Translations under genes and position numbers: made by a program
Part shown: positions 10,582 to 62,500 of the stretch, piece after piece
Layout of the letters: every line of letters starts with the position of its first letter
Position numbering within the stretch: the stretch's first letter is position 1
Notes under the pieces: generated by a model
Told to the model about the DNA's origin: nothing
Seen by the model: the letters and a program-made list of their open reading frames with translations, nothing else
Databases searched by the model: none
Origin: Chloroflexota bacterium
GTDB lineage: Bacteria > Chloroflexota > Limnocylindria > Limnocylindrales > CSP1-4
Assembly: GCA_003169735.1 (NCBI GenBank)
Contig: PNAP01000007.1
Span: 43,738-107,737, forward strand
Direction: 5' to 3'
DNA length: 64,000 bases

Positions 10582-11709
10582 TCAGCCCGCGGTCCCTCCG
10601 CAGAAGTCGTCGGTGGTGCCCTCGTCGCTGCCGAAGAACACGTCGTAGAGCTGGCCGACATGGACGGCCTTGCCGTCCTGGTGCGACGACGATGGCCAGT
10701 ACCAGAACATGTCGATGGCCACCCGATAGCTTTCGTGCGTGCCCGGGTCGGCGAACGTGTAGGTCCGACCGGACCACTGGGCGTTGTAACCGCCGGTTGC
10801 CGACGCCTTGACGATCGTGCTGGTCGAAAGATCGTGCCAATCCGCGCTCGAGTTGACGTCCCCATCGTTGTACTGGATCCGGTAGCGCCAGCCGACGGTC
10901 TGCGCGTGCGTCCCCGACACACGGCTGCTCGCATAGACGATCGGAGCACGGATCGTCAACGTCCTCAGCGTGTCTTCGCTGGTGGTGCTGTAGATGCAGC
11001 GCGCCTCCGGATACTCAGCCACATCGATCAGATCATGGGCGCCGTAATGGCCGCTGTGGCCGGGAAAACTGGCGGCGCTTGGCGCTGGCGCGGTCTGCAC
11101 GGCAGCCGGTCGGCCAGACTCGAAGCTTTCGCAATAGTCCGGGGTGATGAGCTGGACGCCCACCTCCCCGGACCCCTCGAGGACATGCTCGTAGTAGCCG
11201 TCAATTTGGCTGGCTGTGCCGACCGGGTTGGTGACGCCGGACGCGTACCAGAACGCCTCGACCACGACTTCGTAGCGAACCCCGGAGACCGGATCGACGG
11301 CGTGACTCCAGCGCGGGAACATCGCGTTGCGCTTGGCCGTGGCCGCCGACGTCTGGATGGCGCTCTCGTCGATCACCGTGTACACGTCGTCGCCGGAGGC
11401 GGCGTTCGACCAGATCTGGTACTGCACGCCGACGGTCTGGGTGCCCGCACCCTTCGTGCCGAAGATGATGGGACGGCGGATGGTGATCTTGTCGATAAGG
11501 TCCGTGCCCGCCTGGCTCTGGCAGATCGTGCCGGCGTACTCGGTGTTGTCGAGCAGGATGTGCACCCCATACGTGCCCGTCTCACCGCTGGTCTCGCCGG
11601 CCAGCACGGGGGCCGCGCCCAGCGCCATGGCCGCCAACGCGACGAGCAGGGTCGACAGGCCGGCGCGCCGCGTGATGGTTCGAACTCGGAGCCGTCGAAA
11701 CGCTGTCAT
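10582..11709 (-). CDS. secreted protein of unknown family with an internal two-domain duplication (paralog A)
   Basis: Signal peptide 'LLVALAAMALGAAPVLAGE'. Two ~140-aa repeats, each starting 'G(T/H)YG(V/A)H(I/D)L(L/I)D...EYP..C' and ending 'W(S/H)H...Y(R/E)VV(V/I)...FWY'. ATG at 11709 is preceded by a GAGGT Shine-Dalgarno-like sequence. Confidence 0.6.
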   Translation of the reverse strand: MTAFRRLRVRTITRRAGLSTLLVALAAMALGAAPVLAGETSGETGTYGVHILLDNTEYAGTICQSQAGTDLIDKITIRRPIIFGTKGAGTQTVGVQYQIWSNAASGDDVYTVIDESAIQTSAATAKRNAMFPRWSHAVDPVSGVRYEVVVEAFWYASGVTNPVGTASQIDGYYEHVLEGSGEVGVQLITPDYCESFESGRPAAVQTAPAPSAASFPGHSGHYGAHDLIDVAEYPEARCIYSTTSEDTLRTLTIRAPIVYASSRVSGTHAQTVGWRYRIQYNDGDVNSSADWHDLSTSTIVKASATGGYNAQWSGRTYTFADPGTHESYRVAIDMFWYWPSSSHQDGKAVHVGQLYDVFFGSDEGTTDDFCGGTAG

Positions 11710-11777
11710 CGGGACCTCGGGTGCGGCGTGGCCCACGAGGCTACAGCAGGATCGCATGAACGGTCAGCAGGTGAGGT

Positions 11778-12872
11778 TCAGCCGCCGGTCGCTCCGCAGT
11801 ACCCAGGGTTGTTGCCCAGGTCGGTCCCGAGGACCACGTCGGTGACCTGGCCGACGTGCACCGCCTTGCCGTCCTGGTGCGACGCCGATGGCCAGTACCA
11901 GAACATGTCGATCACGATGCGGTAGAAGACGTGCGCGGTCGCGTGGGTGAGCGAATAGGTCCGACCGGACCACTGCGCGTTGTAGCTGCCGGTCGCCGAG
12001 GCCTTGACGACCGAGCTCGTCGAGAGGTCGTGCCAATCCGCGCTGGAGTTGAAGCTCACATCGTTGTATTGGATGCGGTATCGCCAGCCAACGGTCTGTC
12101 GTCCCGAGGTACCGACGCGGTCGCTCGCGTAGACGATGGGCGCACGGATGGTCATCGTCTTGAGCGCAAGATGGCCGGTCGAGCTGTAGACGCAGCGCGT
12201 CTCCGGGTACTCCTGATCGTCGATCAGATCATGCGCGCCGTAGTGATCGCTGTGGCCTGGAGGGTCGCCGACCAGGCCGTCAGGGATCGAGACGCTTCGG
12301 ACGCCGCCAGCGCGTTCGCCTTCGGAGCTCTCGCAGTCGTTCGGGGTGATCGAATGCCCGCCGGCGTCGCCGGTCGCCGCGAGCTGGTGGTCGTAGTACG
12401 CCCCGATCTGGACCGCGGTGCCGACGGGTGTGGTTCCGTCCGGGCCGTACCAGTAGTCGGTGACGACCACGCGATAGGTCAATTCCGTCGGCACGATCGC
12501 GTGGCTCCAGCGCGGGAACATCGCGTTGTGGTTGGGCGTGGCGGTCGCCTTCCGCAGCGGGCTCGCGTCCAGCAGGGTGTAGGTATCGTCGCTCGCCGTG
12601 CTGACCTTCGACTCTATGGTCGTCACCTCGCCGACGCGCTGCGAGGCCACACCGCTCGTAGCGAAGATGATCGGTCGCCGGACGGTGATCTTGTCGATGA
12701 GATCCGTGCCCGTCTCGCTGGCGCAGATCGCGCCGGGATACTCGGGGTTGTCCAGCAGGATGTGTACGCCGTACGTGCCCGTCTCACTCGGAGTGCCGGC
12801 CACGACCGGCGCGACGCTGAGCGCGATCGATACGACCACGACCGCCAGGCCTGAAACGAGCGCACGCGACAT
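11778..12872 (-). CDS. secreted protein, paralog B of the upstream gene (same two-domain architecture)
   Basis: Signal peptide 'LAVVVVSIALSVAPVVAG'. About 60% identity to paralog A, including the conserved tail 'SHQDGKAVHVGQ...D...G...CG.TGG'. DNA-level similarity is visible at the 3' ends. Confidence 0.6.
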   Translation of the reverse strand: MSRALVSGLAVVVVSIALSVAPVVAGTPSETGTYGVHILLDNPEYPGAICASETGTDLIDKITVRRPIIFATSGVASQRVGEVTTIESKVSTASDDTYTLLDASPLRKATATPNHNAMFPRWSHAIVPTELTYRVVVTDYWYGPDGTTPVGTAVQIGAYYDHQLAATGDAGGHSITPNDCESSEGERAGGVRSVSIPDGLVGDPPGHSDHYGAHDLIDDQEYPETRCVYSSTGHLALKTMTIRAPIVYASDRVGTSGRQTVGWRYRIQYNDVSFNSSADWHDLSTSSVVKASATGSYNAQWSGRTYSLTHATAHVFYRIVIDMFWYWPSASHQDGKAVHVGQVTDVVLGTDLGNNPGYCGATGG

Positions 12873-14546: not shown

Positions 14547-15414
14547 AGCGGCGACTTCCACGCGGCGCTATGGCGCCCAGAGCATGACCGCGCCACTCCG
14601 CGAGGTGCTCGTCAAGCGGCCGGGCGAAGCGTTCGGCCGAGCCTTCGATCACCCAGCCCACGGCTTCCGCCACCCGGTTGACCTTGTGCGAGCCCAGCGT
14701 GAACACGACACGTTCGTCGATCTGCTGGTGCGACTCGGCGTGACGGTCCATGAACTCGGCACGGAGATGGGCTCGCCCGACCTGACCTACACGTTCGACC
14801 CGCTGCTGGTGACCGATTCGGGCGCCATCCCCCTCCGCTCGGGCAAGGCGAACCGCCTGGGCGAGGAGGAGGCGATCCAGGCCTGGACCTCGGCGCACGG
14901 CATCCCGACCAGGGGCCGGATCGAGAGCCCCGGCACGGTCGACGGCGGCGACACGTTCTGGCTGCGGCCGGAACTCTTCTGCATCGGCCGGTCACTGAGG
15001 ACGAATCGCCACGGCGCCGAGCAGCTGGCCGAGATCGTCGGCGGCGACGTGCGCATCTTCGACGTGCCGTACGGCGAGGGTCCGTCGGAGTGTCTCCACC
15101 TGCTGAGCCTGCTGTCGCCCATCGCCGACGACCTGGCGGTGGTCTACCTGCCACTCCTGCCGGCCGGCCTGCATGAGCTCCTCAGCGACGAGGGCATCCG
15201 CTACGTGCCGGTCCCGCCCGAGGAGTTCCCGACCCAGGCACCGAATATCCTCGCCGTTCGCCCGGGCGTGCTGATCATGATGTCCGGCAACCCGCACACC
15301 GAGCGTGCCCTGCGCGCCCACGGCTGCGAGGTCCACACCTATGAGGCGCTCGAACTCGGGATCAACGGCAGCGGCGGCCCGACCTGCCTGACGCGGCCGC
15401 TCCTGCGCGGCTGA
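14539..15414 (+). CDS. amidinotransferase-superfamily enzyme (dimethylarginine dimethylaminohydrolase / arginine deiminase-like)
   Basis: C-terminal catalytic Cys in 'GGPTCLTRPL' and a DDAH-like layout. Start taken at ATG 14539, overlapping the upstream stop by 8 bp; the alternative start is ATG ~14584. Confidence 0.7.
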   Translation: MTEAATSTRRYGAQSMTAPLREVLVKRPGEAFGRAFDHPAHGFRHPVDLVRAQREHDTFVDLLVRLGVTVHELGTEMGSPDLTYTFDPLLVTDSGAIPLRSGKANRLGEEEAIQAWTSAHGIPTRGRIESPGTVDGGDTFWLRPELFCIGRSLRTNRHGAEQLAEIVGGDVRIFDVPYGEGPSECLHLLSLLSPIADDLAVVYLPLLPAGLHELLSDEGIRYVPVPPEEFPTQAPNILAVRPGVLIMMSGNPHTERALRAHGCEVHTYEALELGINGSGGPTCLTRPLLRG

Positions 15415-15438
15415 ACTTCGGCCCAGGGGCCGAACCAG

Positions 15439-15945
15439 CTAGGTCGGCGCTCCCGGCTTGAACACCATCATGATCACGATCAGGACGATGAGGAGCGAGA
15501 CGACCATCCCGGCCATCTGCTGACGCTTGATCAGAGCGACAAGATGCGCTGGCGGCCCGGATGGCAGGGCTGATCCGGGAGCTGGCGTCGGCGGCGGCCC
15601 GCTCGTCGCCGCGATGAGCGCCCTTGCGTTGGGCAGCATCACGAAGAGGGAGATCGACAGGGCGATCACGTAGAAGAGGATCCCCAGCCCGAGCCACACC
15701 TCGGTGACGCTGTGGCCCGATCGCCAGATGAGGGCGATGCCGGTGAGGCCCACCCAGATGGCGACGGGCAACACCATCCGCTCTGAGAGCCGATACGTCA
15801 GGCGGATGGCGAAATTGACGTGCTGCGGCTCCTTGCCACCCATCGCCCCGATGATCGGGAATGCGAACGTCGGGCCGAACGCGACGATCGCTCCACCGAT
15901 GTGCAGGAACAGGAAGGTCAGGAGCACGAGGTCTGTCGAGTTCAC
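15439..15945 (-). CDS. integral membrane protein (DUF2269-like, 4 TM)
   Basis: Four hydrophobic helices and a Pro-rich loop. There is no competing ORF with features. Confidence 0.55.
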   Translation of the reverse strand: MNSTDLVLLTFLFLHIGGAIVAFGPTFAFPIIGAMGGKEPQHVNFAIRLTYRLSERMVLPVAIWVGLTGIALIWRSGHSVTEVWLGLGILFYVIALSISLFVMLPNARALIAATSGPPPTPAPGSALPSGPPAHLVALIKRQQMAGMVVSLLIVLIVIMMVFKPGAPT

Positions 15946-16046
15946 AAGATCCTCCGTGTGGCAGGGTCAGATCTGGACGGAACCGTCACTTCTACGGTAG
16001 CGCGGCGCGACGGGGCCTCGCTCGGCCATCGCGCAGGCTTGTACCA

Positions 16047-18362
16047 TCGGTCGGGATGACGGTCACGACACGTCCGATCCGGTCCGAGCCGACGGTCTCA
16101 CCCGCAGCTCCATCAGGGCTCGTGGCGCCAGTGTCGGGCGAGATCGGCGTCGGGCGAGCCGACGCCGACGCCACGCCGCGTCGGCGTGAAGGCCCGGAGA
16201 AACTGACCGGCGCCGCGAAATACGCTGATGACCTCGTCGTCCCGGGTGCCTGGTACGGCGCGACCATCCGCTCCACCGAGGCCCATGCCCGCCTGCTCGG
16301 CATCGACCTCGATCCGGACTTCGACTGGTCGAAGGTGGTCGTCGTGACCGCCGCCGACATCCCCGGCGAGAACGTGGTCAGTCTCATCTCGGACGATCAG
16401 CCGGCGCTCGTCTCGACCGAGATCCGCCACCACGCCGAACCGGTCGCGCTCATCGCCGCGCCCGATCGCGCCACGTTGCGCGGGGCCCGACGACGCATCC
16501 GCCTCCGCACGGAGCCGCTGCCGGCGGTCTTCGATCCGCTCGAATCGAGGCAGCAGTTCGCTCACTTCGAGCTTGCCGAGGGCGACATCGACGCCGGCTT
16601 CGCCGAGGCCGACCTGGTCATCGAGGGGACCTACCGTGTCGGCCACCAGGAACAGCTCTACATCGAGAACCAGGCCATGATCGCCATACCGCGCGACGAC
16701 GGCGGCGTCACGGTGCAGGGCTCGCTCCAGTGCCCGTACTACATCCACAAGGCACTCAAACGCGCTCTCGCGTTGTCCGGCGACCAGGCCGTGGTCGTCC
16801 AGACCGAGACCGGCGGCGGCTTCGGTGGCAAGGAGGAGTACCCCTCCATGATCGCCATCCACGCGGCGCTGTTGGCGCGGCGCTGCGGCAAACCGGTGCG
16901 CATGATCTACGAGCGCCACGAGGATCTGGCGGCGACCACCAAGCGGCACCCGGCCATCGTCCGGTACCGGAGCGGCGTCACGCATGACGGCCGGCTGGTC
17001 GCCCAGGACATCGAGGTCATCATGGACGGCGGCGCTTATTGCACGCTTACGCCGGTAGTCCTGTCGCGCGGCACCATCCACGCCGGCGGCCCCTATCGCT
17101 GCCCGAACGTGCGAATCCGTGGTCGGGCGATGGCCACCAACACGCCGCCGAACGGCGCCTTCCGCGGCTTCGGCGCGCCGCAGACCGAATTCGCGGCCGA
17201 GATGCAGGCCAATCGCGCGGCAGAAGCGCTGGGCATCTCACCGCTCGAGTTGCGGCGGCGTTGGGTCTATCGCGAGGGCGACACGACGCCGACCGGCCAG
17301 GTCCTGCGCGAGAGCGTCGGCGGCGAGGAGGTGCTCGAGCGGGCGGCCGAGGCGAGCGGCTTCGAGCGCGTCCGCGAGCTGACCCGCATCGGCCGGCATG
17401 CCCGGACGAGCCGCCAGCGCACGGCGTCTGGCATCGGCCTCGCGCTCGCCTGGCACGGCGCCGGGTTCACCGGCAGCGGCGAGGTCAAGCTGGCCAGCGT
17501 GGCCAGCATCGAGTTGACGCACGACGGCAGGATCCGCGTCCTGAGCGCCTCGACCGAGATGGGCCAGGGCACCAAGACGATCTTCCCGCAACTCGTCTCG
17601 CAGGAGCTTGGCGTGCCGTACGAGGCGGTCGAGATCGCGGTGCCGGACACCTCGGTCGTGCCGGACAGCGGCCCGACGGTCGCGTCGCGCACCGCGATGG
17701 TCGTCGGCGGGCTGCTCATCAAGGCCGCGCGTCGGCTGCGATCGCTGGTCGAGGACGCGACCGGGCGGACCTTCGCCGATTCGTACCGCGAGTACGCCGC
17801 GAGCCACGGCGGCGCGCGCGTCGACCAGCGCTTCGAGCCGTATCCGGATGTCTCGTTCGACGACGACACCTACCGCGGCGATGCGTATCCGTGCTACGGC
17901 TGGGCGGCCGCCGTGGCCGAGGTCGACGTCGATCTCGATACGGGCGAGGTCGCGGTGCGCCACGTGGTCGCCGTAGATGACGTTGGCAAGGTCATCCACC
18001 GCGTGCTGGCCGAGGGGCAGGTCGAGGGCGGCACGCTCCAGGCCGTTGGTTACGCGACGATCGAGGAGATCAAACTCCAGGACGGCCGCTACCTGAACGA
18101 CCGCCTCGCGACCTACCTGATCCCGACCGCGATGGACGCTCCCCACATCAGCACCATCCTCGTCGAGAAGCCGTTCAGCGGTTCGCCGCACGGGGCGAAG
18201 GGCGTCGGCGAGCTGCCCATGGACGTCGGGGCGCCGGCTGTGGTCGCCGCCATCCACGACGCGGTCGGCGTCTGGATCCACGATCTGCCCGCCTCGCCGG
18301 AGCGGATCCTTGCGGCGCTCGCCGCAAAGGGCGACGCCCGCGCGGGCACGCGTCCCGCATGA
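16047..18362 (+). CDS. xanthine dehydrogenase-family molybdopterin-binding large subunit
   Basis: Aldehyde-oxidase/xanthine-dehydrogenase a/b hammerhead and MoCo-binding domains ('GGGFGGKE', 'QVEGG'). ATG at 16047 is in the frame of track ORF 15861..18362. 4-bp overlap with the 2Fe-2S subunit gene. Confidence 0.85.
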   Translation, partial: SVGMTVTTRPIRSEPTVSPAAPSGLVAPVSGEIGVGRADADATPRRREGPEKLTGAAKYADDLVVPGAWYGATIRSTEAHARLLGIDLDPDFDWSKVVVVTAADIPGENVVSLISDDQPALVSTEIRHHAEPVALIAAPDRATLRGARRRIRLRTEPLPAVFDPLESRQQFAHFELAEGDIDAGFAEADLVIEGTYRVGHQEQLYIENQAMIAIPRDDGGVTVQGSLQCPYYIHKALKRALALSGDQAVVVQTETGGGFGGKEEYPSMIAIHAALLARRCGKPVRMIYERHEDLAATTKRHPAIVRYRSGVTHDGRLVAQDIEVIMDGGAYCTLTPVVLSRGTIHAGGPYRCPNVRIRGRAMATNTPPNGAFRGFGAPQTEFAAEMQANRAAEALGISPLELRRRWVYREGDTTPTGQVLRESVGGEEVLERAAEASGFERVRELTRIGRHARTSRQRTASGIGLALAWHGAGFTGSGEVKLASVASIELTHDGRIRVLSASTEMGQGTKTIFPQLVSQELGVPYEAVEIAVPDTSVVPDSGPTVASRTAMVVGGLLIKAARRLRSLVEDATGRTFADSYREYAASHGGARVDQRFEPYPDVSFDDDTYRGDAYPCYGWAAAVAEVDVDLDTGEVAVRHVVAVDDVGKVIHRVLAEGQVEGGTLQAVGYATIEEIKLQDGRYLNDRLATYLIPTAMDAPHISTILVEKPFSGSPHGAKGVGELPMDVGAPAVVAAIHDAVGVWIHDLPASPERILAALAAKGDARAGTRPA

Positions 18363-18826
18363 CCTACCACCTGACGGTCAACGGCGAGCCGGTCGAGCTG
18401 GCCGTACCCGGCATGCGTCGATTGCTCGATGCGCTGCGCGAGGACCTCGGGCTGACGGGCACAAAGGAGGGCTGCGGCGAGGGCGAGTGCGGCGCGTGCT
18501 CAGTGCTCGTGGACGGCGCCGTCGTCGACAGCTGCCTCGTCCCGGTCTGCCAGGTCGATGGGTCGACGGTTCGGACGGTCGAAAGCCTGGTAGGGCCCGC
18601 AGACGGTCGACTGAGCCCGCTCCAGGAGGCCTTCCTCGACGCCGGCGGCGCCCAGTGCGGCATCTGCACGCCGGGCATGCTGATGGCGGCGCGTGCATTC
18701 CTCGATGGCGGCGGCGAACCGACCGACGAAGCCATCCGCGAGGCCATCGCCGGCAACCTCTGCCGCTGCACGGGCTACACCAAGATCATCGAAGCCATCG
18801 CCCTCGCGGCGAAGCGTGAGCGTTGA
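18359..18826 (+). CDS. xanthine dehydrogenase (2Fe-2S)-binding small subunit
   Basis: 'CGEGECGACSV' plus 'CGICTPG...CRCTGY' are both [2Fe-2S] motifs of CoxS/XdhC-iron-sulfur subunits. Confidence 0.9.
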   Translation: MTYHLTVNGEPVELAVPGMRRLLDALREDLGLTGTKEGCGEGECGACSVLVDGAVVDSCLVPVCQVDGSTVRTVESLVGPADGRLSPLQEAFLDAGGAQCGICTPGMLMAARAFLDGGGEPTDEAIREAIAGNLCRCTGYTKIIEAIALAAKRER

Positions 18827-18884
18827 CAGCATACTGGACGCAGCATACCATTGTGGTACGTATCAACTGGTAGGGCACGCCGAT

Positions 18885-19124
18885 ATGAAAGCTACCGTCG
18901 GAGAGCGAGGTCAGGTGACCATCCCCAAGCCGCTGCGTGACCGTTTGGGCATCAGGCCGGGCGAACGACTCGAATTCACCGAGGAACCCGGCCGACTGGT
19001 GGTGCGAAAGGCCGACATCGAAGCACGGATGCGCAGCGTCTTCGGTACGCTCAAGCTGCCCGGCACGGTCGACGAGGCGATCGAAGAGATGCGTGGTCCA
19101 GTCGTATTGCCGCCGGAACCGTGA
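18885..19124 (+). CDS. vapB: AbrB/MazE/SpoVT-family antitoxin (VapB-like)
   Basis: 'GERGQVTIPKPLRDRLGIRPGERLEF' is a swapped-hairpin AbrB-type fold. 79 aa. Stop overlaps the PIN gene start (GTGA). Confidence 0.75.
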   Translation: MKATVGERGQVTIPKPLRDRLGIRPGERLEFTEEPGRLVVRKADIEARMRSVFGTLKLPGTVDEAIEEMRGPVVLPPEP

Positions 19125-19531
19125 TCACCGCGGTCGATACGAACGTGATCCTGGATGCTTTGACCGGCGAAGCTCCGTTCGCTGGGCCGTCACAGGAGGC
19201 GATGCTGACCTGTGCGGCCGACGGCTCGCTGATCGTCTGTGACGTCGTCTGGGCCGAGACGGTCGCATGGTTCCGGTCAGCGGACAGCATGGAAGCAACG
19301 ATGCAACGACTGGATCTGCGGTTCGTAGCGTCCTCGACTGCCACGGCTGAAGCCGCCGGACTGGCCTGGCGCCTGTACCGATCCGAGGGTGGACCGCGGG
19401 AACGGGTCCTACCCGACTTCCTGGTCGGAGCTCACGCCATGATCCAGGCGGATCGCCTCTTGACCCGCGATCGCGGATTCTTCCGGCGCTATTTTGACAG
19501 CCTCCGGATCGTCGATCTGGCGACCCCGTAG
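19121..19531 (+). CDS. vapC: PIN-domain ribonuclease toxin (VapC-like)
   Basis: 'ITAVDTNVILDAL' N-terminal acidic PIN motif, ~136 aa, GTG start. 4-bp overlap with the antitoxin gene. Confidence 0.75.
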   Translation: MITAVDTNVILDALTGEAPFAGPSQEAMLTCAADGSLIVCDVVWAETVAWFRSADSMEATMQRLDLRFVASSTATAEAAGLAWRLYRSEGGPRERVLPDFLVGAHAMIQADRLLTRDRGFFRRYFDSLRIVDLATP

Positions 19532-19540
19532 GCACCACTG

Positions 19541-20398
19541 ATGCCGGTCGAGCCACCCGTCGTGACGCCGCGGACTCTCGCGGATGCGTACGCGACCCTG
19601 GCCGGCGCGCCGCATCGGCCGATGGCCGGAGGCACGGATCTGATGGTGCAGATCACCGGCGAGATCGGCGAACCGCCAGAGCGCGTTCTGGACCTGTGGC
19701 GCCTGGATGAACTGCGCGGCATCGCTCTGTCCGCGACTGGCGACGAACTCGTCTTCGGCGCGCTGACGACGTACACGGAGATACGTCGCTCGGCGGTCGT
19801 CGCAGCGCGGCTACCGGCCCTGGTCGAGGCGGCCGCGACCATCGGCGCGGCGCAGATCCAGAACCGCGGCACGCTGGGCGGCAACATCGGCAATGCTTCA
19901 CCCGCTGGCGACACGCTGCCCATCCTGCTCGCGACCGACGCGGTCATCGTGCTCGGCAGCACGCGCGGCGAGCGCGGCGTCCCGGCAGCAGCGTTCTGGA
20001 CCGGGTACCGGAAGACGGCGCGAGCCGATGACGAGCTGGTCATCCGCGTCCGCATCCCGGTCCCGGCGCGGCGGGTGGTGCGCTTCCGAAAGGTAGGCAC
20101 GCGGCGAGCGCAGGCCATCTCCAAGGTCGTGTTGGCACTCGCCTATCGCGAAGACGGCGGCGTCTGGCGCGATGTCCGCGTCGCCCTGGGATCGGTCGCG
20201 GAACGCCCCATCCGGGTCCCGGAGACCGAGGCGGTCCTCGAAGGCGCCGCGGCCCGCGAGACGGTCGCCGATCACGCCGCGGCCGTCATCAGCCGCGAGA
20301 TCCACCCCATCGATGACGTCCGCTCCACCGCCGATTACCGCCGCATCGTCACCGCCAGGATCCTGCATCGCCTCCTGCGCGAGGAGGGCGGCTGGTGA
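19541..20398 (+). CDS. xanthine dehydrogenase FAD-binding subunit
   Basis: 'AGGTDLMV' and '[15 protein letters not shown]' are FAD-binding CoxM-type motifs. The gene starts 9 bp after the vapC stop and overlaps malate synthase by 4 bp. Confidence 0.85.
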
Positions 20399-21984
20399 CG
20401 TCGATCCCGGCCGGCGTCGAAGTCGGCGCCAGCGTGCCTACGGACCTCGAGAGCATCCTGTCGGCCGACGCGCTCGCCTTCGTCGCCGACCTCAATCGAA
20501 CGTTCGACCACCAGCGCATCGAGCTGCTGGAACGCCGCAGGGATCGCCAGGCCGAACTGGACGCCGGCGGCAAGCTCGATTTCCCGTTGGCCACCTGGGA
20601 GGTCCGGGAAGCCGCCTGGTCGGTCGCCCCCGCACCCTCCGATCTCGTCGACCGTCGCGTCGAGATCACCGGCCCGGTCGAGCGGAAGATGATGATCAAT
20701 GCGCTCAACAGCGGCGCTCGCGTCTTCATGGCGGATCTCGAGGACGCCCTCAGCCCGACCTGGTCGAACGTGCTCGAAGGCCAGGCCAACCTCCGCGACG
20801 CCGTCCGGCGAGAGCTCGACTTCACGAGCCCGGAGGGCAAGTTCTACGCGCTGGATGCCGAGACCGCCACGCTCGTGGTCCGGCCGCGCGGCTGGCATCT
20901 CGTCGAGCGGCACCTCCTCGTGGAGGGGCATCCAGTGTCCGCCTCGCTGTTCGACGCCGGCCTCTACCTCTTCCACAACGCGCGACAGATCCTGGAGCGC
21001 GACGAGGGCCCGTGCCGCGGCTCCTACTTCTACCTGCCCAAGCTGGAGAGCCGCTGGGAAGCGCGGCTCTGGAACGACGTCTTCATCCATACCCAGGAGC
21101 GACTCGGCATCCCGCGCGGGTCGATCCGCGCCACGGTCCTCATCGAGACCATCCCCGCCGCGTTCGAGATGGACGAGATCCTGCACGAGTTGCGCGAGCA
21201 CGCCGCGGGCCTGAACGCCGGTCGCTGGGACTACACCTTCAGCCTCATCAAGCGGTTCCAGGGCCGAGCGGACATGGTCCTGCCCGATCGCGCCCAGGTG
21301 ACCATGGCGGTGCCCTTCATGCGTGCCTACACGCAGCTCCTGGTCAAGACCTGCCATCGACGCGGCGCCCACGCCATCGGCGGCATGAGTGCCTTCATCC
21401 CCAACCGACGGAAGCCCGAGGTGACGGAGAACGCCCTGGCCAAGGTCCGAGAGGACAAGGAGCGCGAGGCGGGCGACGGATTCGATGGGACCTGGGTGGC
21501 CCACCCGGACCTGGTGCCGGTTGCGAAGGAGGTCTTCGACCGAGTCCTTGGCGACCGACCGAACCAGAAGGATCGACTGCGCCAGGACGTCCGAACGACG
21601 GCGGCCGAGCTCCTTGCGGTGGGCGTCCCGGGCGGGCGCGTGACCGAGGCCGGCGTGCGCACCAACATCTCGGTGGCGCTCCAGTACATCGATTCGTGGC
21701 TCGGCGGGAACGGCGCGGCCGCCATCAACGACCTGATGGAGGATGCCGCGACTGCGGAGATCAGCCGCACACAGCTGTGGCAATGGTTGCGCCACAAGGT
21801 CGCGCTGGACGACGGCGGGCGCATGACCGAGGAGTTGTACCGGGCGATCCGGGACGACGAGCTGGAGACGCTCGGCGCCGGGAACGGACATCTGGCCGCG
21901 GCCGCCGAGGTGCTCGATTCACTCGTCCTCGACGCGGAGTTCCATGAGTTCCTGACCTTGCTGGCGTACGGCCGCCTCGACTGA
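20395..21984 (+). CDS. aceB: malate synthase A
   Basis: 529 aa with malate synthase A signature regions ('[22 protein letters not shown]', 'GLNAGRWDY', 'HAIGGM'). Confidence 0.9.
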
Positions 21985-21995
21985 TCCGGGCGATC

Positions 21996-22421
21996 CTAGC
22001 GAGGATCAGCGAACGGGTTCTTGACCGTGACTGAACCGTACGTTGCGCCGTCCGCGAGGTCTTCGCTGAGGACGTGGGAACAACCCGCGACTTCGGCGGC
22101 GCGAAGGATCAAGGCATCCCAGATCGAGATCTGCCAATCTCGACTGCCGGCGATCGCCGCGGCGACGAGCGAGGCGTCGATGGCGACGACGGGCAGGACC
22201 GAGAGCTGACGAACCATCGCCTCGGCAACGTCGAGCGCCACGGGAACGGTGAGCTTCCGGGTGACCACCGCGTAGAACTCCGTCAGGACCTGTGTCGATA
22301 CGACCAGGTTGCGGCCGGGCAGTGGGGCGACGACCTCTTGGGCTCGGTCACGTTTCGTCTGGTCGGCGGTGTCGACCGCGTATACCCACACGTTCGTGTC
22401 AACGAAGATCAGATCGGTCAT
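21996..22421 (-). CDS. PIN-domain toxin (VapC-like), second TA module
   Basis: 'LIFVDTNVWVYAV' PIN N-terminal motif. Start taken at the internal ATG, overlapping the antitoxin gene. Confidence 0.7.
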   Translation of the reverse strand: MTDLIFVDTNVWVYAVDTADQTKRDRAQEVVAPLPGRNLVVSTQVLTEFYAVVTRKLTVPVALDVAEAMVRQLSVLPVVAIDASLVAAAIAGSRDWQISIWDALILRAAEVAGCSHVLSEDLADGATYGSVTVKNPFADPR

Positions 22422-22644
22422 GCAGTTCGTCTCGCGTCCACGCGCGGCCGCCGGGTCCACTGGTCGCCAGGCTCCGCGCGGCCAGATCCGCGAACGCCAT
22501 CAGGGCCACAGCCGAGTCAGTCACGCCCGCGTAGCGTTCGAGGTACGTTCGAAGCAGAGCGTTGACCGAGGTTCCGTCCTCCAGAGCGCGCATTCGGGCT
22601 TTCTTCAAGAGTCGGTCGTCGAGGGCGATCGTCAGATTGGCCAT
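22399..22644 (-). CDS. ribbon-helix-helix (CopG/Arc-like) antitoxin
   Basis: 'MANLTIALDDRLLKKARMRALEDGTSVNALLRTYLE' is a classic RHH N-terminus. 81 aa. Sits upstream of and overlapping the PIN gene. Confidence 0.65.
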   Translation of the reverse strand: MANLTIALDDRLLKKARMRALEDGTSVNALLRTYLERYAGVTDSAVALMAFADLAARSLATSGPGGRAWTRDELHDRSDLR

Positions 22645-22726
22645 GTCAGAGCTCCCGTGCTACACGGGTTCAGTGTAACACGGGTATCTAATCGCGCCTA
22701 CTCGAGCCGTTTGCGGTGCGAGTCGC

Positions 22727-24118
22727 CTAGCGGCTGACGATGGATCGCTCCTGATAGCGGCCGAAACCGCGGCGCCCGACGAACTCCCCGCTGCGGATCA
22801 CATCCTGGCCGCGCAGCAGGACGTGGCGCACGGCGCCGCGCACGGCCATACCCTCATATGGCGTGTAGTCGCTGGTGTGATGGAGGTCGGCGGCGCGGAT
22901 GATGCGCGCGGCCGAGGGATCGAAAAGAACCAGATCGGCGTCCTTGCCGACCTCGATGACGCCCTTCGACGGCATACCGAAGAGTCGGGCCGGCGTCGTC
23001 GAGAGGACATCGACCATGCGCTCGAGCGTGATGCGGCCCTTGGCGACGCCCTCCGAGTAGACGATCGCGAGGAGCGTCTCGATGCCCGGTGCCCCGTTGC
23101 TGATCTCGGTGAACGGCTGGCCCGTGTAGCGCTTCTCAACGGCCAGCCGGTCCGGCACGTGGTCCGTGGCGACCACATCAAGCGTGCCATCGGCGAGGCC
23201 GGTCCAGAGTGCATCGACGTCGTGGCGCGAGCGGAGCGGCGGCGAGATGACGTAGCGCATCGCCTCATCATCCGTGCCTTCGTAAACGCGCGAATCCAGC
23301 GCCAGGAAGTGCGGGCACGTCTCGGCGAAGACCGCTTCGCCGCGCACTTTCGCGGCGCGGATCGTCGCGACGGCATCGCCGCACGACACGTGGACCGCAT
23401 ACATCGGCGCGCGGGCCCTGGCCGCCAGCGCGATCGCCCGCTCGGTTCCGGATGCCTCGACCTCTGGCGGCCGCGAATCGGCGTGGTGGCGCGGCGCCGT
23501 GCGACGCGCCGCCATCTGGGCGGCGATGCCCCGCTCGAGCATCGCCCGGTCCTCGCAATGGATCTCGAGCAGGGCGCCCAGGCTCGCCGTCCCGGCCAGG
23601 AGTCGGCCCAACGCCGCCTCATCGACCCCGAAGTCAAAGACCATGAACGCCTTGAAGGTCGAGACTCCTTGCTCGACCGCCCAGGCCAGATCGGCCTCGG
23701 GCGACGCCTGCTGCGCCGTGATCACGGCCGACAGCCCGTAATCGATCGCCGAATCGCCGACGGTCCGATCCAGCCACTCGGCCACGCCGTCGCGCAGCCG
23801 CCCTTGGGCCGCGACGGAGATGCCCGTCCCTGGGTTGTTGAACGAGAGGAACGTGGTCGTGCCGCCGTACGCGGCCGCCACGGAGTCCTGGAAGAACCGA
23901 TCGGGCTCCGCGTCGCTGGCGATCCGCGTGTGCGTGTGGACGTCGATGACGCCTGGCAGAACGAGAAGACCCGTGGCGTCGACGACTCGACCGGCCGACT
24001 CGACCGGGATGGCGGCCTCGACCGCGGCGATGCGCGAACCCTGGACGGCCACGTCGGCTTGACGGGATCCGCTCGGCGTGACCACCGTGCCGCCACGGAT
24101 CAGCACATCGAAGCTCAT
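22727..24118 (-). CDS. cyclic amidohydrolase (allantoinase / dihydropyrimidinase / hydantoinase family)
   Basis: 'DVHTHT' metal-binding motif and a dihydroorotase-like TIM-barrel layout. Start at ATG ~24118 ('MSFDVLIRGG'). The context of urate-pathway genes favours allantoinase. Confidence 0.8.
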   Translation of the reverse strand: MSFDVLIRGGTVVTPSGSRQADVAVQGSRIAAVEAAIPVESAGRVVDATGLLVLPGVIDVHTHTRIASDAEPDRFFQDSVAAAYGGTTTFLSFNNPGTGISVAAQGRLRDGVAEWLDRTVGDSAIDYGLSAVITAQQASPEADLAWAVEQGVSTFKAFMVFDFGVDEAALGRLLAGTASLGALLEIHCEDRAMLERGIAAQMAARRTAPRHHADSRPPEVEASGTERAIALAARARAPMYAVHVSCGDAVATIRAAKVRGEAVFAETCPHFLALDSRVYEGTDDEAMRYVISPPLRSRHDVDALWTGLADGTLDVVATDHVPDRLAVEKRYTGQPFTEISNGAPGIETLLAIVYSEGVAKGRITLERMVDVLSTTPARLFGMPSKGVIEVGKDADLVLFDPSAARIIRAADLHHTSDYTPYEGMAVRGAVRHVLLRGQDVIRSGEFVGRRGFGRYQERSIVSR

Positions 24119-59507: not shown

Positions 59508-62500
59508 ATGCGTTGCCTGGATCGTTTCGTTTGGCGTCGGCGCGTGGGACTCGCCGCTGCGCTCGGGCTCTTCGGCCTTCTGTCGGTCGGGCTGGCTGGC
59601 GCGTCCGGCTCGGACCCGTGCGACACGGCTTGGAAAGCTCCCGTCTCCGGCGACTGGTCCGACGGGTCGAAATGGACAGGCGGCGTGCCCGATGCGTCGA
59701 AGCGGGCATGCTTCACCGAAGCCGGTTCGTACGTCGTATCGAAGACGACAAGCGCCGGTATCAGTGCGGGGAGCGTGTACGTGGGTCCGTTGGCCTCCGT
59801 GGCGCTCAGCGATGTGTCCGGCTACGGGTTGGGCCTCACCGTCGCCGATGACTTCACCAACGCCGGCACGCTCGATCTGCCGCACGGCATCAGCATCACG
59901 CTCCCGCCTGGCGGCACGGTCCACAACACCGGCACGCTGCACCTGCCGGCAAGTGGGACGATCAACGCCAACCTCGACAACAGCGGCATCGTCCAGCTGG
60001 TCGGCGGCGACCTCCAAGTCAACGGCACGACCTCCAACTCGGACTCGATCAGCGTGGCCGGCGGGTCGACCCTCTGGACGGCTGGCTTCAGCCAGACCGC
60101 CGGAACGGTCGACAACGCGGGCGCCTTCCAGAGCTCTGGCCCGGTGACCTACAACGGAGGCACGTTGTCGGGCCACGACGTCGTGCTCTACCACACCTCG
60201 CTGACCCTCTCACCCGATCTGTCCGGCACGGTCGCTTTCGGGTGTGCCCGTTACACCGATACCTGCCCGCTGCTGAGCAACATCCCGGCCGGGCTCTCGC
60301 TGACATTCCATGACTCACTCGGCTACGGCGTTGCCCTGACCGTCGCCGATGGCTTCACCAACGCCGGCACGCTCAGCCTGCCCGCCCCGACAGGTGTCAG
60401 CATCACCCTCCCCCCTGGCGGCACGTTCCACAACACCGGCACGCTGCACCTGCCGGCGGGCGGGACGATCAACGGCAACCTCGACAACAGCGGCACCATC
60501 CAGCTGGTCGGCGGCGAACTCCAAGTCAACGGCACGACGACCAACTCGGACTCGATCAGCGTGGCCGGCGGGTCGACCCTCTCGACGGCCGGCTTCACCC
60601 AGACCGCCGGAGCGGTCGACAACGCGGGCGCCTTCGTGAGCTCTGGCCCGGTGACCTACAACGGGGGGACCCTGTCGGGCCACGACGTCGTGCTCTACCA
60701 CACCTCGCTGACCCTCTCACCCGATCTGTCCGGCACGGTCGCTTTCGGGTGTGTGCGGTCAACCGATACCTGCCCGCTACTGAGCAACATCCCGCACGGG
60801 CTCTCGCTGACCATCAATGATGCGTCCGGCTACGGTGTCGTGGTGAGCGCCAGCGATGGCCTGACCGTCGCCGGAACGTTCCATCTGCCGGCCGGCATCA
60901 CCCTCACCCTCCCGCCCGGTGGCACGGTCCACATCACCGGCACGTTGCACCTGCCGGCAGGCGGGACGATCAACGCCAACCTCGACAACAGTGGCACCAT
61001 CCAGCTGGTCGGCGGCGACCTCCAAGTCAACGGCACGACGACCAACTCGGGCTCGATCAGCGTGGCCGGTGGCTCGACGCTCTCGACGGTCGGCTTCAGC
61101 CAGACCGCCGGAACCACGATCCTTCAAGGCTCAGCGTCCAACCTTGCCGGCGGCGGGCTCGTCGACATCAAGGGCGGGACGCTCGGCGGCATCGGCACCG
61201 TCAGTGGCACGGTGCACAACGGCGGCACCGTCAGCCCCGGCACCTCGCCGGGCCGGCTCACCATCGCCGGCACATACACCCAACTCGCCTCGGGCCACCT
61301 CGCCATCGAGGTCACCGGCACGGCCGCCTCATCCTTCGACCGCCTGGCCGTGACCGAGACGGCGACCCTTGACGGGACGCTCGCGATCACCACGAGCGGC
61401 TTCACGCCGGGCCCGGCCGACACGTTCGCGTTCCTGACCGCCGACTCCCGCAGCGGCACCTTTGCGGCTGTGACCGGGACGACCATCAGCCCGAGTCGCA
61501 CGTATGCCATCGAGTATTCGGCGGTCGGAGCTGGCCTGCACGTCGTGGTCCTTCCGCCGACAGTCTCGCTCACGCTGCCTCCCTTCACCAACTCTCGGAC
61601 CGTGACCGCGACCTTTGCCACGACCGATCTCGACGACGCCGGCATCGTCGGCTGGTGTCTCTCGGAATCGGAATCCAATCCTCCGCCCGATGCGTGGAAG
61701 GACACGAAGCCTCTCTCGTTCACCCTAACCGCTGGTGACGGCACCAGGAGCATCTACGCCTGGGTGAGGGACGGCAATGGCACCGTCTCGGCGTCGGACG
61801 AGGCGACCACCGTCCTCGACACCGTGAAGCCCACGGCTTCGCTCACGGCTCCCGCCACGAGTTCCACTCGTGCCATCGCGGTCACCGTCGGAGGATCCGA
61901 TGCCGGCGGTTCGGGTGTCTCCGCGTATGCCATCGTCGAGGGAACGACAGCTCCCGGCAGCGGCAACTCGGCATGGAAGGCGACCGCGCCGACCCAGTTC
62001 ACCCTGTCCACCGGAAACGGGGACAAGACAGTCAGCGCCTTTACGCGAGATGCCGCGGGCAACGTGTCCGACTGCGACACGAAGACCGTGACGCTCACCG
62101 TCGCAAGCGTTCCGGACGCCTCGACGGGTGTCACCGCCGAGGCGGGCAACGCCCAGGTCACCGTCAGCTGGTCCGCGCCCGCGCACGACGGCGGCAGCGC
62201 CATCACGGGATACACGGCCACGTCGTCACCGGGTAACCGGACCTGCACGACTGCAAGCGCCCTCTCCTGTGCCGTGATCGGCCTCACGAACGGGACCGCG
62301 TACACCTTCACTGTCACGGCTGCCAACGGAGTTGGCACTGGTCCGGCGTCAGCGGCCAGTCCTGCCGTGGTGCCCACGACCGGATCGCTCACGGCGACCC
62401 TTGCCGCGACCTCGATGGGTGCCGCGAAGAACTCGCCGATTCCGGTCGACCTTGGCTGGGCGAGCGGCCTCGCGGCCCCGTCGATCGGCAGCTGGACCCT

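Follow-up and report, generated by a model that had tools for sequence, protein, structure and literature searches.

Results

Genes of the locus

The DNA analysed here is a stretch of 64,000 nucleotides of the contig PNAP01000007.1 (assembly GCA_003169735.1), which we call the window and whose numbering is used for all the positions given below. It comes from an uncultured soil or peat Chloroflexota of the class Candidatus Limnocylindria, and the homologues of its genes bear Limnocylindria names. The window contains an operon of the xanthine dehydrogenase (XDH) family, with the genes of the molybdopterin (Mo) large subunit (L), the 2Fe-2S small subunit (S) and the flavin adenine dinucleotide (FAD)-binding medium subunit (M), and the subject of this work is a vapBC toxin-antitoxin (TA) module that lies between S and M (Table 1). 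A previous examination of the letters of this DNA, the sequence-only reading hereafter, had described this arrangement and had proposed that TA activity could gate purine catabolism or, alternatively, that a recent insertion had been tolerated.

The genes are tightly packed, as the sequence-only reading had reported. The stop of L and the start of S share the 4 nt ATGA, and there is another overlap of 4 nt between M and the malate synthase gene. The two inserted genes, with the antitoxin gene first, are coupled by the 4 nt GTGA at 19121-19124, and M follows the stop of vapC after 9 nt. The start of M agrees with the consensus N-terminus of the aligned homologues, and malate synthase is predicted to be a downstream member of the transcription unit of M.

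Regarding the host enzyme, L has the Pfam domains Ald_Xan_dh_C, MoCoBD_1 and MoCoBD_2, and together L, S and M show the domain set expected for XDH. The best NCBIfam match of L is pucD with 516.9 bits, under the equivalog cut-off of 783.65, and the best matches of M (glyceraldehyde dehydrogenase beta and xdhA/XdhB, about 167-168 bits) are also under their cut-offs. Within 6 kb downstream there are genes of purine catabolism, encoding uricase, 5-hydroxyisourate (HIU) hydrolase of the transthyretin family, 2-oxo-4-hydroxy-4-carboxy-5-ureidoimidazoline (OHCU) decarboxylase, a DUF3830 protein and an allantoinase-like amidohydrolase. Because these genes adjoin the operon, a purine-catabolic reading of it is reasonable; we infer xanthine as the substrate from the gene context only, L and M being under the equivalog cut-offs.

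An identical VapC was found on 14 contigs (NCBI, ENA and Logan assemblies, from several samples), and the gene order is the same on every VapC contig shown, wherever the contig extends far enough. The contig PKVP01000157 of the metagenome-assembled genome (MAG) GCA_003131865.1 carries the same DNA as the window. An assembly artefact is ruled out, since the identical arrangement occurs on contigs of at least six independent assemblies. In one NCBI MAG copy (L001), where the gene call for L is 719 aa, the L subunit is just 96% identical to that of the window and the malate synthase is found in two open reading frames (ORFs) at 11275-12788, whereas the window (20395-21984) and the ENA copies have an intact malate synthase of 529 aa. 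Either an assembly difference or a strain difference may explain this.

The base composition of the inserted cassette differs from that of its flanks. Its GC content is 62-65% versus 69-74%, that is, 5-8 points lower, and the GC content at third codon positions (GC3) is 0.71 in vapB and 0.75 in vapC versus 0.86-0.90 in the flanks.

Table 1. Coordinates of the genes and other features of the locus, in window numbering unless a relative is named
Feature	Position	Strand	Remarks
L, XDH-family molybdopterin large subunit	16203..18362	+	start uncertain (16053-16203)
S, 2Fe-2S small subunit	18359..18826	+	TGA stop 18824-18826; Pfam Fer2, Fer2_2
P_vapB, sigma-70-like site	18823..18851	+	-35 TTGACA 18823-18828, 17-nt spacer, -10 TACCAT 18846-18851
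Candidate VapB operator, direct repeat CAGCATAC x2	18827-18834, 18841-18848	+	from repeat search; spans the promoter spacer and overlaps the -10
Segment between -10 and vapB ATG, 33 nt	18852..18884	+	near-palindrome TGGTACGTATCA at 18854-18865
vapB, antitoxin, 79 aa	18885..19124	+	AbrB/SpoVT/MazE swapped-hairpin DNA-binding N-terminal half
vapC, PIN-domain toxin, 136 aa	19121..19531	+	GTG start inside the vapB stop overlap
vapC-M spacer gcaccactg, 9 nt	19532..19540	+	no Shine-Dalgarno-like motif
M, FAD-binding medium subunit	19541..20398	+	Pfam FAD_binding_5, CO_deh_flav_C
Malate synthase	20395..21984	+	Pfam MS_N, MS_TIM-barrel, MS_C
RHH-PIN pair of relatives	L008:1156-1886, L092:1007-1737, L102:3645-4372, L103:3071-3795, L091:1700-2430		RHH, ribbon-helix-helix

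Identity of the inserted pair

The assignment of the two genes to the AbrB and PIN families stood up to profile searches, both being above the Pfam cut-offs. VapB matches PF04014 (MazE/AbrB) over residues 3-43 with 48.8 bits (cut-off 24.7, E 6.7e-13) and the NCBIfam model TIGR01439 (AbrB) with 53.2 bits (cut-off 28.3, E 1.8e-14); its C-terminal half is presumed to be the toxin-binding part. VapC matches PF01850 (PIN) with 33.2 bits (cut-off 23.6) and scores under the NCBIfam equivalog cut-offs.

PIN nucleases coordinate Mg2+ or Mn2+ by means of an acidic tetrad D, E, D, D. The residues D6, E46, D99 and D117 of VapC, which we take to be this catalytic tetrad, are invariant in both of our alignments (31 and 38 sequences). 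An AlphaFold2 model of VapC made from the 38 sequences reached a predicted local distance difference test (pLDDT) score of 93.9, and when it was compared with the PDB by Foldseek the top 25 matches were all VapC or PIN toxins. The best neighbours, with template-modelling (TM) scores of 0.72-0.76, were VapC toxins solved in TA complexes: Mycobacterium tuberculosis VapC15 (27% identity), Rickettsia felis VapC2, VapC-1 of non-typeable Haemophilus influenzae (NTHi), Shigella VapC and M. tuberculosis VapC11. The identity of the window VapC to the solved VapCs is 14-27%. A PDB search with the single VapC sequence gave no match, and a sequence-profile search matched M. tuberculosis VapC15 with E = 0.0044.

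The antitoxin-first order, the short overlap and the type of antitoxin are all typical of PIN TA operons (PMC5499597). By every feature that can be judged from the sequence, the pair is a canonical VapBC type II TA module with an AbrB-type antitoxin.

Promoter, candidate operator and edges of the cassette

We scanned both strands of 15300-22800 for sigma-70 consensus promoters and for terminators. The site P_vapB, at the boundary between S and vapB, was the sole sigma-70-like match in these 7.5 kb (10 matches out of 12, with 0.3 such sites expected by chance), and neither a terminator-like site nor a second promoter for M was found in the scanned region; an Rfam search of 15000-23000 gave no element. 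Since neither a promoter nor a terminator could be detected for M itself, transcripts of M must come through the cassette, by read-through from upstream or from P_vapB, in agreement with the dependence expected by the sequence-only reading. A single promoter ahead of the antitoxin gene, together with an overlap of 1 or 4 nt, is also the layout of VapBC operons in general.

The P_vapB site is interlocked with the end of S, the stop codon of which sits within the -35 hexamer. The same architecture, TTGAC(A/G/T)-17/18-TAC(C/T/G)AT, was present in the 8 other XDH-context copies for which the region upstream of vapB was available (L094, L091, L106, L092, L105, L103, L040 and L156), and in 7 of the 9 XDH-context copies the stop of S is a TGA inside the -35 hexamer. 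Two family members outside XDH operons (L097 and L099) also have this layout, one of them with TTAACG as -35. All the homologous cassettes examined had direct or inverted repeats containing CATAC between the two hexamers, the candidate operators of the relatives being GGTATG...CATACC inverted repeats.

The start of vapB is the feature in which the window departs from its relatives. In every other copy examined the vapB ATG lies 6 nt past the -10, and therefore vapB is predicted to be leaderless in those copies. The window has ACG where the others have ATG, and 27 extra nt precede the real start (MKAT), so the window vapB would carry a short leader; the spacer between S and vapB is 58 nt. The extra 33 nt before vapB might be a degenerate second copy of a promoter of the L092 type, since both share GGTACGTATCA and have equal length, and this similarity, which does not amount to a demonstration, is suggestive.

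At the other edge, M begins 1-13 nt after vapC ends in the 8 homologous loci where this distance was measurable, and the S-M junction of the cassette-free relatives, from -14 to +22 nt, is equally tight. No direct or inverted repeats bracket 18823-19540, that is, there is neither a target-site duplication nor terminal inverted repeats, and no recombinase was found among the neighbouring genes. By these features the cassette would not class as a transposon, an insertion sequence or an integron cassette.

Distribution of the cassette in related operons

An M-subunit profile served to collect 80 loci from species-representative genomes and as many again from JGI metagenomes. Further contexts were taken around individual M and VapC homologues, which made around 170 relatives examined overall, all of them metagenome assemblies (referred to by L numbers). 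The order L-S-M is kept in all the relatives whose contig spans the three genes, and S and M are adjacent in about half of the operons.

The arrangement S-vapBC-M occurred in at least 9 further Limnocylindria lineages (L091, L092/L093, L094-L096, L040, L101, L103, L105, L106 and L156), with VapC proteins that are just 46-62% identical. Furthermore, L090, the closest relative in M (85%), has a VapC-like C-terminus, LVLVDPMGH*, ending 11 nt before M. The cassette is absent and S and M are adjacent in L088 (80%), L089 (82%), L100, L104 and L009/L107. L088 and L089 are as closely related to the window as the carriers, yet their S-M junction is intact. The synteny comparison suggested by the sequence-only reading gave a divided answer: the junction is intact in relatives such as these two, and the insertion is not unique to the window. 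A situation in which all the relatives carry the cassette and M has an independent promoter is not what we see, as L088 and L089 lack the cassette and no promoter of M was found. In the M tree the carriers cluster in the clade of the window, where they make up roughly half of about 16 lineages, and L040 and L156 form a separate pair elsewhere. The nearest VapC in a database of 5.8 billion proteins is 60% identical.

Members of this vapBC family that share the promoter layout were also seen beside uncharacterised genes (L097:1033-1682) and beside a 2H-phosphodiesterase-like gene (L099:4762-5408). These contexts are unrelated, so the family is not tied to XDH operons.

Around one third of the operons, belonging to a different clade, have S-M spacers of 215-300 bp. 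We considered these spacers as decayed vapBC modules and rejected this possibility, because 50 of them gave no match to the hidden Markov models of VapB and VapC (best E = 0.2-1). The motif TTGACN-17-TANNNT was not found in these 50 spacers either. In this largest other clade of Limnocylindria the spacers (L016:7771-8000 and around 50 similar ones) contain a conserved ORF for a small single-pass membrane protein with the pattern MSPDxDRIAVPTNG...QLAVGFGIIASLVLLVAGR.RRRR, which may be an additional, so far uncharacterised component of the enzyme, either a subunit or an anchor.

Constraint, loss and exchange at the S-M junction

In the trio L092, L103 and L105 we could compare the divergence of the cassette with that of the genes beside it. 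The ratio of nonsynonymous to synonymous substitution rates (dN/dS) was 0.12-0.15 for vapB and 0.09-0.13 for vapC, with synonymous distances (dS) of 0.57-0.84 and 0.84-1.29 respectively. For S the dN/dS was 0.07-0.14 (dS 0.56-0.70) and for M it was 0.11-0.12 (dS 0.57-0.63). Both vapB and vapC are under purifying selection, with a dN/dS of about 0.1. The dS of the cassette is similar to that of the flanks or up to about twofold higher, and the cassette in this trio has diverged in step with its flanks. The distances of M and VapC are correlated (Mantel r = 0.48, p = 0.02).

One locus bears the scar of a deletion. In L102 (4382-4999) S has 205 aa and is fused in frame with the C-terminal half of VapB: a segment of it (residues 160-195) matches residues 48-83 of the L103 VapB with 92% identity (E = 1e-21). 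After this VapB fragment there is a short tail and then M, so that vapC and the DNA-binding half of VapB are gone. The M of L102 is sister to the M of L105, whose cassette is intact. As a separate observation, the S protein of the related L008 is also extended (169 aa).

Another pair of loci suggests a replacement of the cassette by a divergent allele. The M genes of L092 and L101 are 93-100% identical in DNA and 98% in protein, whereas their vapC genes are 42-73% identical in DNA and the VapC proteins 53%; for the portion of vapB that is present, the identity is 77-80%. The break in identity falls exactly at the boundary between vapC and M, and the C-terminal half of VapB and the VapC of L101 resemble the type found in L094 and L097.

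Other toxin-antitoxin pairs and inserts in the operon

A second vapBC-like pair lies in the window between malate synthase and the allantoinase-like amidohydrolase, on the minus strand (21996-22644). Its members are a PIN protein (21996-22421, Pfam 3e-13) and, ahead of it, a protein of 81 aa (22399-22644) with a weak RHH/FitA-like match, and among the relatives examined it was found in the window's own population only. A different pair, a FitA-like RHH antitoxin with a PIN protein of 147 aa, occupies the L-S junction in a subclade comprising L008, L102, L103, L105, L092 and probably L091. Since L092, L103 and L105 also have vapBC between S and M, they carry TA modules in both junctions.

Inserts of other kinds were seen in single lineages: an unrelated PIN ORF that ends at the M start (L021:7606-8001), a DinB-like gene (L013:7025-7537), a glyoxalase/VOC gene (L073:6977-7387), a membrane protein gene (L040:6209-6847) and, on the opposite strand, an ORF of 462 aa that by eye looks like a pyridoxal phosphate (PLP)-dependent enzyme (L011:906-2294). 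The junctions of the XDH operon seem unusually permissive. Regarding the density of PIN genes around it, we looked at 90 small ORFs taken from 455 kb of operon surroundings in 27 cassette-free relatives, and PF01850 was not among the listed families with at least two members; this estimate is crude, given the composition filter on the ORFs, the small counts and its scope of the first 25 Pfam families. The result would hint at a preference of PIN pairs for the purine cluster.

Two other observations concern other parts of the window. At its edge, at 6-434 on the plus strand, there is an HTH_3 (XRE-type) protein whose gene overlaps by 4 nt with that of a 173-aa protein at 431-952 with no Pfam match, and both together may be another antitoxin-toxin-like pair. 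At 59822-61117 on the minus strand there are three similar ORFs of 95-99 aa, around 500 bp apart, and Tandem Repeats Finder reported nothing for this trio.

Discussion

A probably selfish resident of the S-M junction

We consider, with a probability of about 0.6, that vapBC is a long-term, entrenched but dynamic and mainly selfish resident of the S-M junction in a clade of Limnocylindria. A single acquisition near the base of the clade, followed by inheritance, repeated loss and occasional recombinational exchange, is the likely course. As in the characterised VapBC systems, VapC would be an RNase kept inactive by VapB, and VapB, alone or in complex with VapC, would bind the CATAC repeats and autorepress P_vapB. 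The genes vapB, vapC, M and malate synthase would be transcribed together, both from P_vapB and on transcripts that start at the xdh promoter further upstream and read through, and the translation of M would be coupled to the termination of vapC, in place of the S-M coupling of the cassette-free relatives.

The persistence of the module would be mainly a matter of selfish addiction, because its loss risks the action of the toxin. A toxin that arrests growth and is neutralised by a proteolytically labile antitoxin would be in agreement, indirectly, with the purifying selection on both genes and with L102, where the antitoxin is truncated and the toxin gene is missing. The base-to-base packing of the cassette against S and M would allow near-precise deletions only, and therefore clean losses would be rare. 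Regarding the enzyme, the effect would be neutral or modest, probably limited to one more promoter inside the operon that serves M and malate synthase.

Several points weigh against this interpretation. The neighbour-joining tree of 126 VapC sequences is star-like, and the VapCs from XDH operons are not monophyletic with respect to the family members in other contexts; for instance, the VapC of L094 is 68% identical to that of L099, which is not from an XDH operon, and at most 58-62% identical to the other XDH-context copies. As the tree is star-like and the XDH copies are not closest to each other, a single origin is not proven, and there may have been repeated independent capture or recombinational spread instead of a single ancestral insertion. 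The low GC3 of the window vapB and vapC would fit a more recent import of the window allele, and the promoter-to-start geometry of the window, with its 27 extra nt, departs from the predicted leaderless layout of the family. With its low GC3 and atypical leader, the window allele may thus have replaced another one relatively recently in this lineage. The apparent exchange between L092 and L101 could in principle come from a chimeric contig; nevertheless, each of the two cassette types was seen in independent assemblies (L093, and P0132 with 21 member sequences). Finally, we infer transcription, toxicity, neutralisation and operator binding of the module from what is known of the family.

Other explanations

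The explanation that comes next, in our opinion an unlikely one, is that the TA pairs guard the purine cluster from large deletions by post-segregational killing, a role in which the second pair after malate synthase and the RHH-PIN pair of the relatives would be included. That chromosomal TA modules stabilise the DNA next to them, as in superintegrons and genomic islands, is a well-established proposal. It would be in agreement with two PIN pairs lying within 3.5 kb while the other window ORFs that were scanned contained no PIN, with four TA types having landed in or beside the operon in different lineages, and with PIN not being among the families listed for the 27 cassette-free relatives. 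However, most Limnocylindria retain the same cluster without any TA module, the enrichment behind this argument is a rough estimate for the reasons given above, and the same data fit pure selfish persistence equally well.

We give slightly less credit to a regulatory switch, in which P_vapB, under repression by VapB or VapBC until stress leads to the degradation of VapB, would by now account for most of the expression of M and malate synthase. How much active XDH holoenzyme is present, and how much glyoxylate is disposed of, would then depend on the state of the TA pair, and, in addition, free VapC could halt translation under purine or nitrogen stress. The position of M, 9 nt past vapC and lacking its own promoter, Shine-Dalgarno motif and terminator, would favour this, as would the strong and conserved consensus promoter just upstream of vapB, the purifying selection that keeps the cassette across the clade and the TA modules in both operon junctions of some relatives. 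Besides, most of the vapB copies are predicted to be leaderless, with the ATG just 31 nt past the S stop, and the translation of vapB, vapC and M from read-through transcripts may be poor as a result, which would make the transcripts from P_vapB important for M. Nevertheless, relatives that are equally close manage with S and M directly coupled, and the cassette was lost by a scar-leaving deletion in at least one case and swapped for a divergent allele in another, which is unexpected for a tuned regulator. The same family with its promoter adjoins unrelated genes, addiction alone predicts purifying selection on the TA pair, and there is nothing in the toxin or the operator specific to purine metabolism. 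It is thus unlikely that the TA module gates purine catabolism. A broader form of the idea, to which we assign similarly long odds, is that the embedded pairs (AbrB-PIN in S-M and RHH-PIN in L-S) have been co-opted, the occupancy of P_vapB by the antitoxin, and with it the stress or protease state of the cell, deciding how much M and malate synthase is made irrespective of L and S. If this were true, both the assembly of active XDH and the disposal of glyoxylate would come under a checkpoint controlled by the TA pair.

The other proposal of the sequence-only reading, that the cassette came in recently by horizontal transfer into this one lineage and has merely been tolerated, is also quite improbable. 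In its favour, the cassette is below its flanks in GC and GC3, the nearest VapC is only 60% identical, L088 and L089 are close relatives in which the cassette is missing, and the promoter region of the window is atypical. But the same junction, gene order and promoter, with the S stop in the -35 hexamer, recur in many diverged relatives, at least 9 further lineages in all, and the closest relative, L090, also appears to have vapC before M. The loss scar in L102, the co-divergence with the flanks in the trio L092, L103 and L105 and the lack of a target-site duplication or terminal inverted repeats at the cassette also argue against it. If there was a recent event, it may have been a replacement of the allele and not the occupancy of the site.

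That the pair is a decaying or inactive remnant, no longer working as a TA module, is very hard to maintain: VapC does score under the NCBIfam equivalog cut-offs, but neither ORF is interrupted or varies among the 14 contigs, the catalytic acidic tetrad is complete, the model of VapC is confident and VapC-like, the dN/dS in the relatives is about 0.1, and a real remnant looks otherwise, as the S::VapB' fusion of L102 does.

Comparison with known systems

The closest parallels of the module, taken here again as a mainly selfish resident of the junction, are the VapBC systems with AbrB/SpoVT-type antitoxins: VapBC2 of Rickettsia felis, those of Shigella, Salmonella and the F plasmid, and VapBC-1 of NTHi. 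They share with the window pair the antitoxin-first order and the 4-nt overlap, the swapped-hairpin N-terminal domain of the antitoxin, a PIN toxin with the D-E-D-D tetrad, repeat elements over the -35 and -10, and the predicted fold (TM 0.72-0.76). Their toxins are only 14-27% identical to that of the window where they have been solved; R. felis VapBC2 has been solved on its own promoter DNA (PDB 3zvk). Furthermore, unlike free-standing VapBC operons, the window pair is wedged between genes of enzyme subunits, with the stop of S in its -35 and M 9 nt further on.

By sequence profile and by fold, the closest toxin to the window VapC is that of M. tuberculosis VapBC15 (PDB 4chg; E = 0.0044, 27% identity), whose host likewise belongs to the high-GC Terrabacteria. 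Its antitoxin partner is presumably not of the AbrB type, unlike the VapB of the window. Cortes and colleagues reportedly found, in 2013, that leaderless transcripts are over-represented among the TA modules of M. tuberculosis, and a leaderless layout is what we predict for most copies of the vapBC family studied here. The VapBC modules of M. tuberculosis are mostly in genomic islands or in independent operons, whereas the window pair is inside a metabolic operon.

The TA cassettes of Vibrio superintegrons are also small selfish modules among unrelated genes, patchy in distribution, often lost or exchanged, and they may protect their neighbours. In contrast with them, the window module has no attC sites, integrase or flanking repeats, and it is in line and probably co-transcribed with its host operon. 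Regarding this operon, it has in common with pucCDE of Bacillus and xdhABC of Escherichia coli the three subunits and their typical domains, the translationally coupled genes and the purine neighbours; it differs in the order L-S-M with malate synthase fused on, and in scores under the equivalog cut-offs.

Significance of the finding

In the searchable literature we came across no description of an xdh operon that harbours a TA module, and in a 2026 paper on Limnocylindria genomics we found nothing relevant on TA modules or purine genes. The module itself is ordinary, and what is unusual is its position as a conserved in-line resident between the subunit genes of a heterotrimeric enzyme.

Thus, this locus is a natural experiment in which one defined chromosomal site shows four states of a cassette in related uncultured soil bacteria: retained under purifying selection, cleanly deleted, deleted leaving an S::VapB' fusion, and replaced with a breakpoint at a gene boundary. 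It offers a compact case of how addiction modules may become entrenched in transcription units that look essential, and of the effects they may have on the subunit genes downstream. If the internal promoter does matter for M and malate synthase, this would be a selfish element rewiring a metabolic operon.

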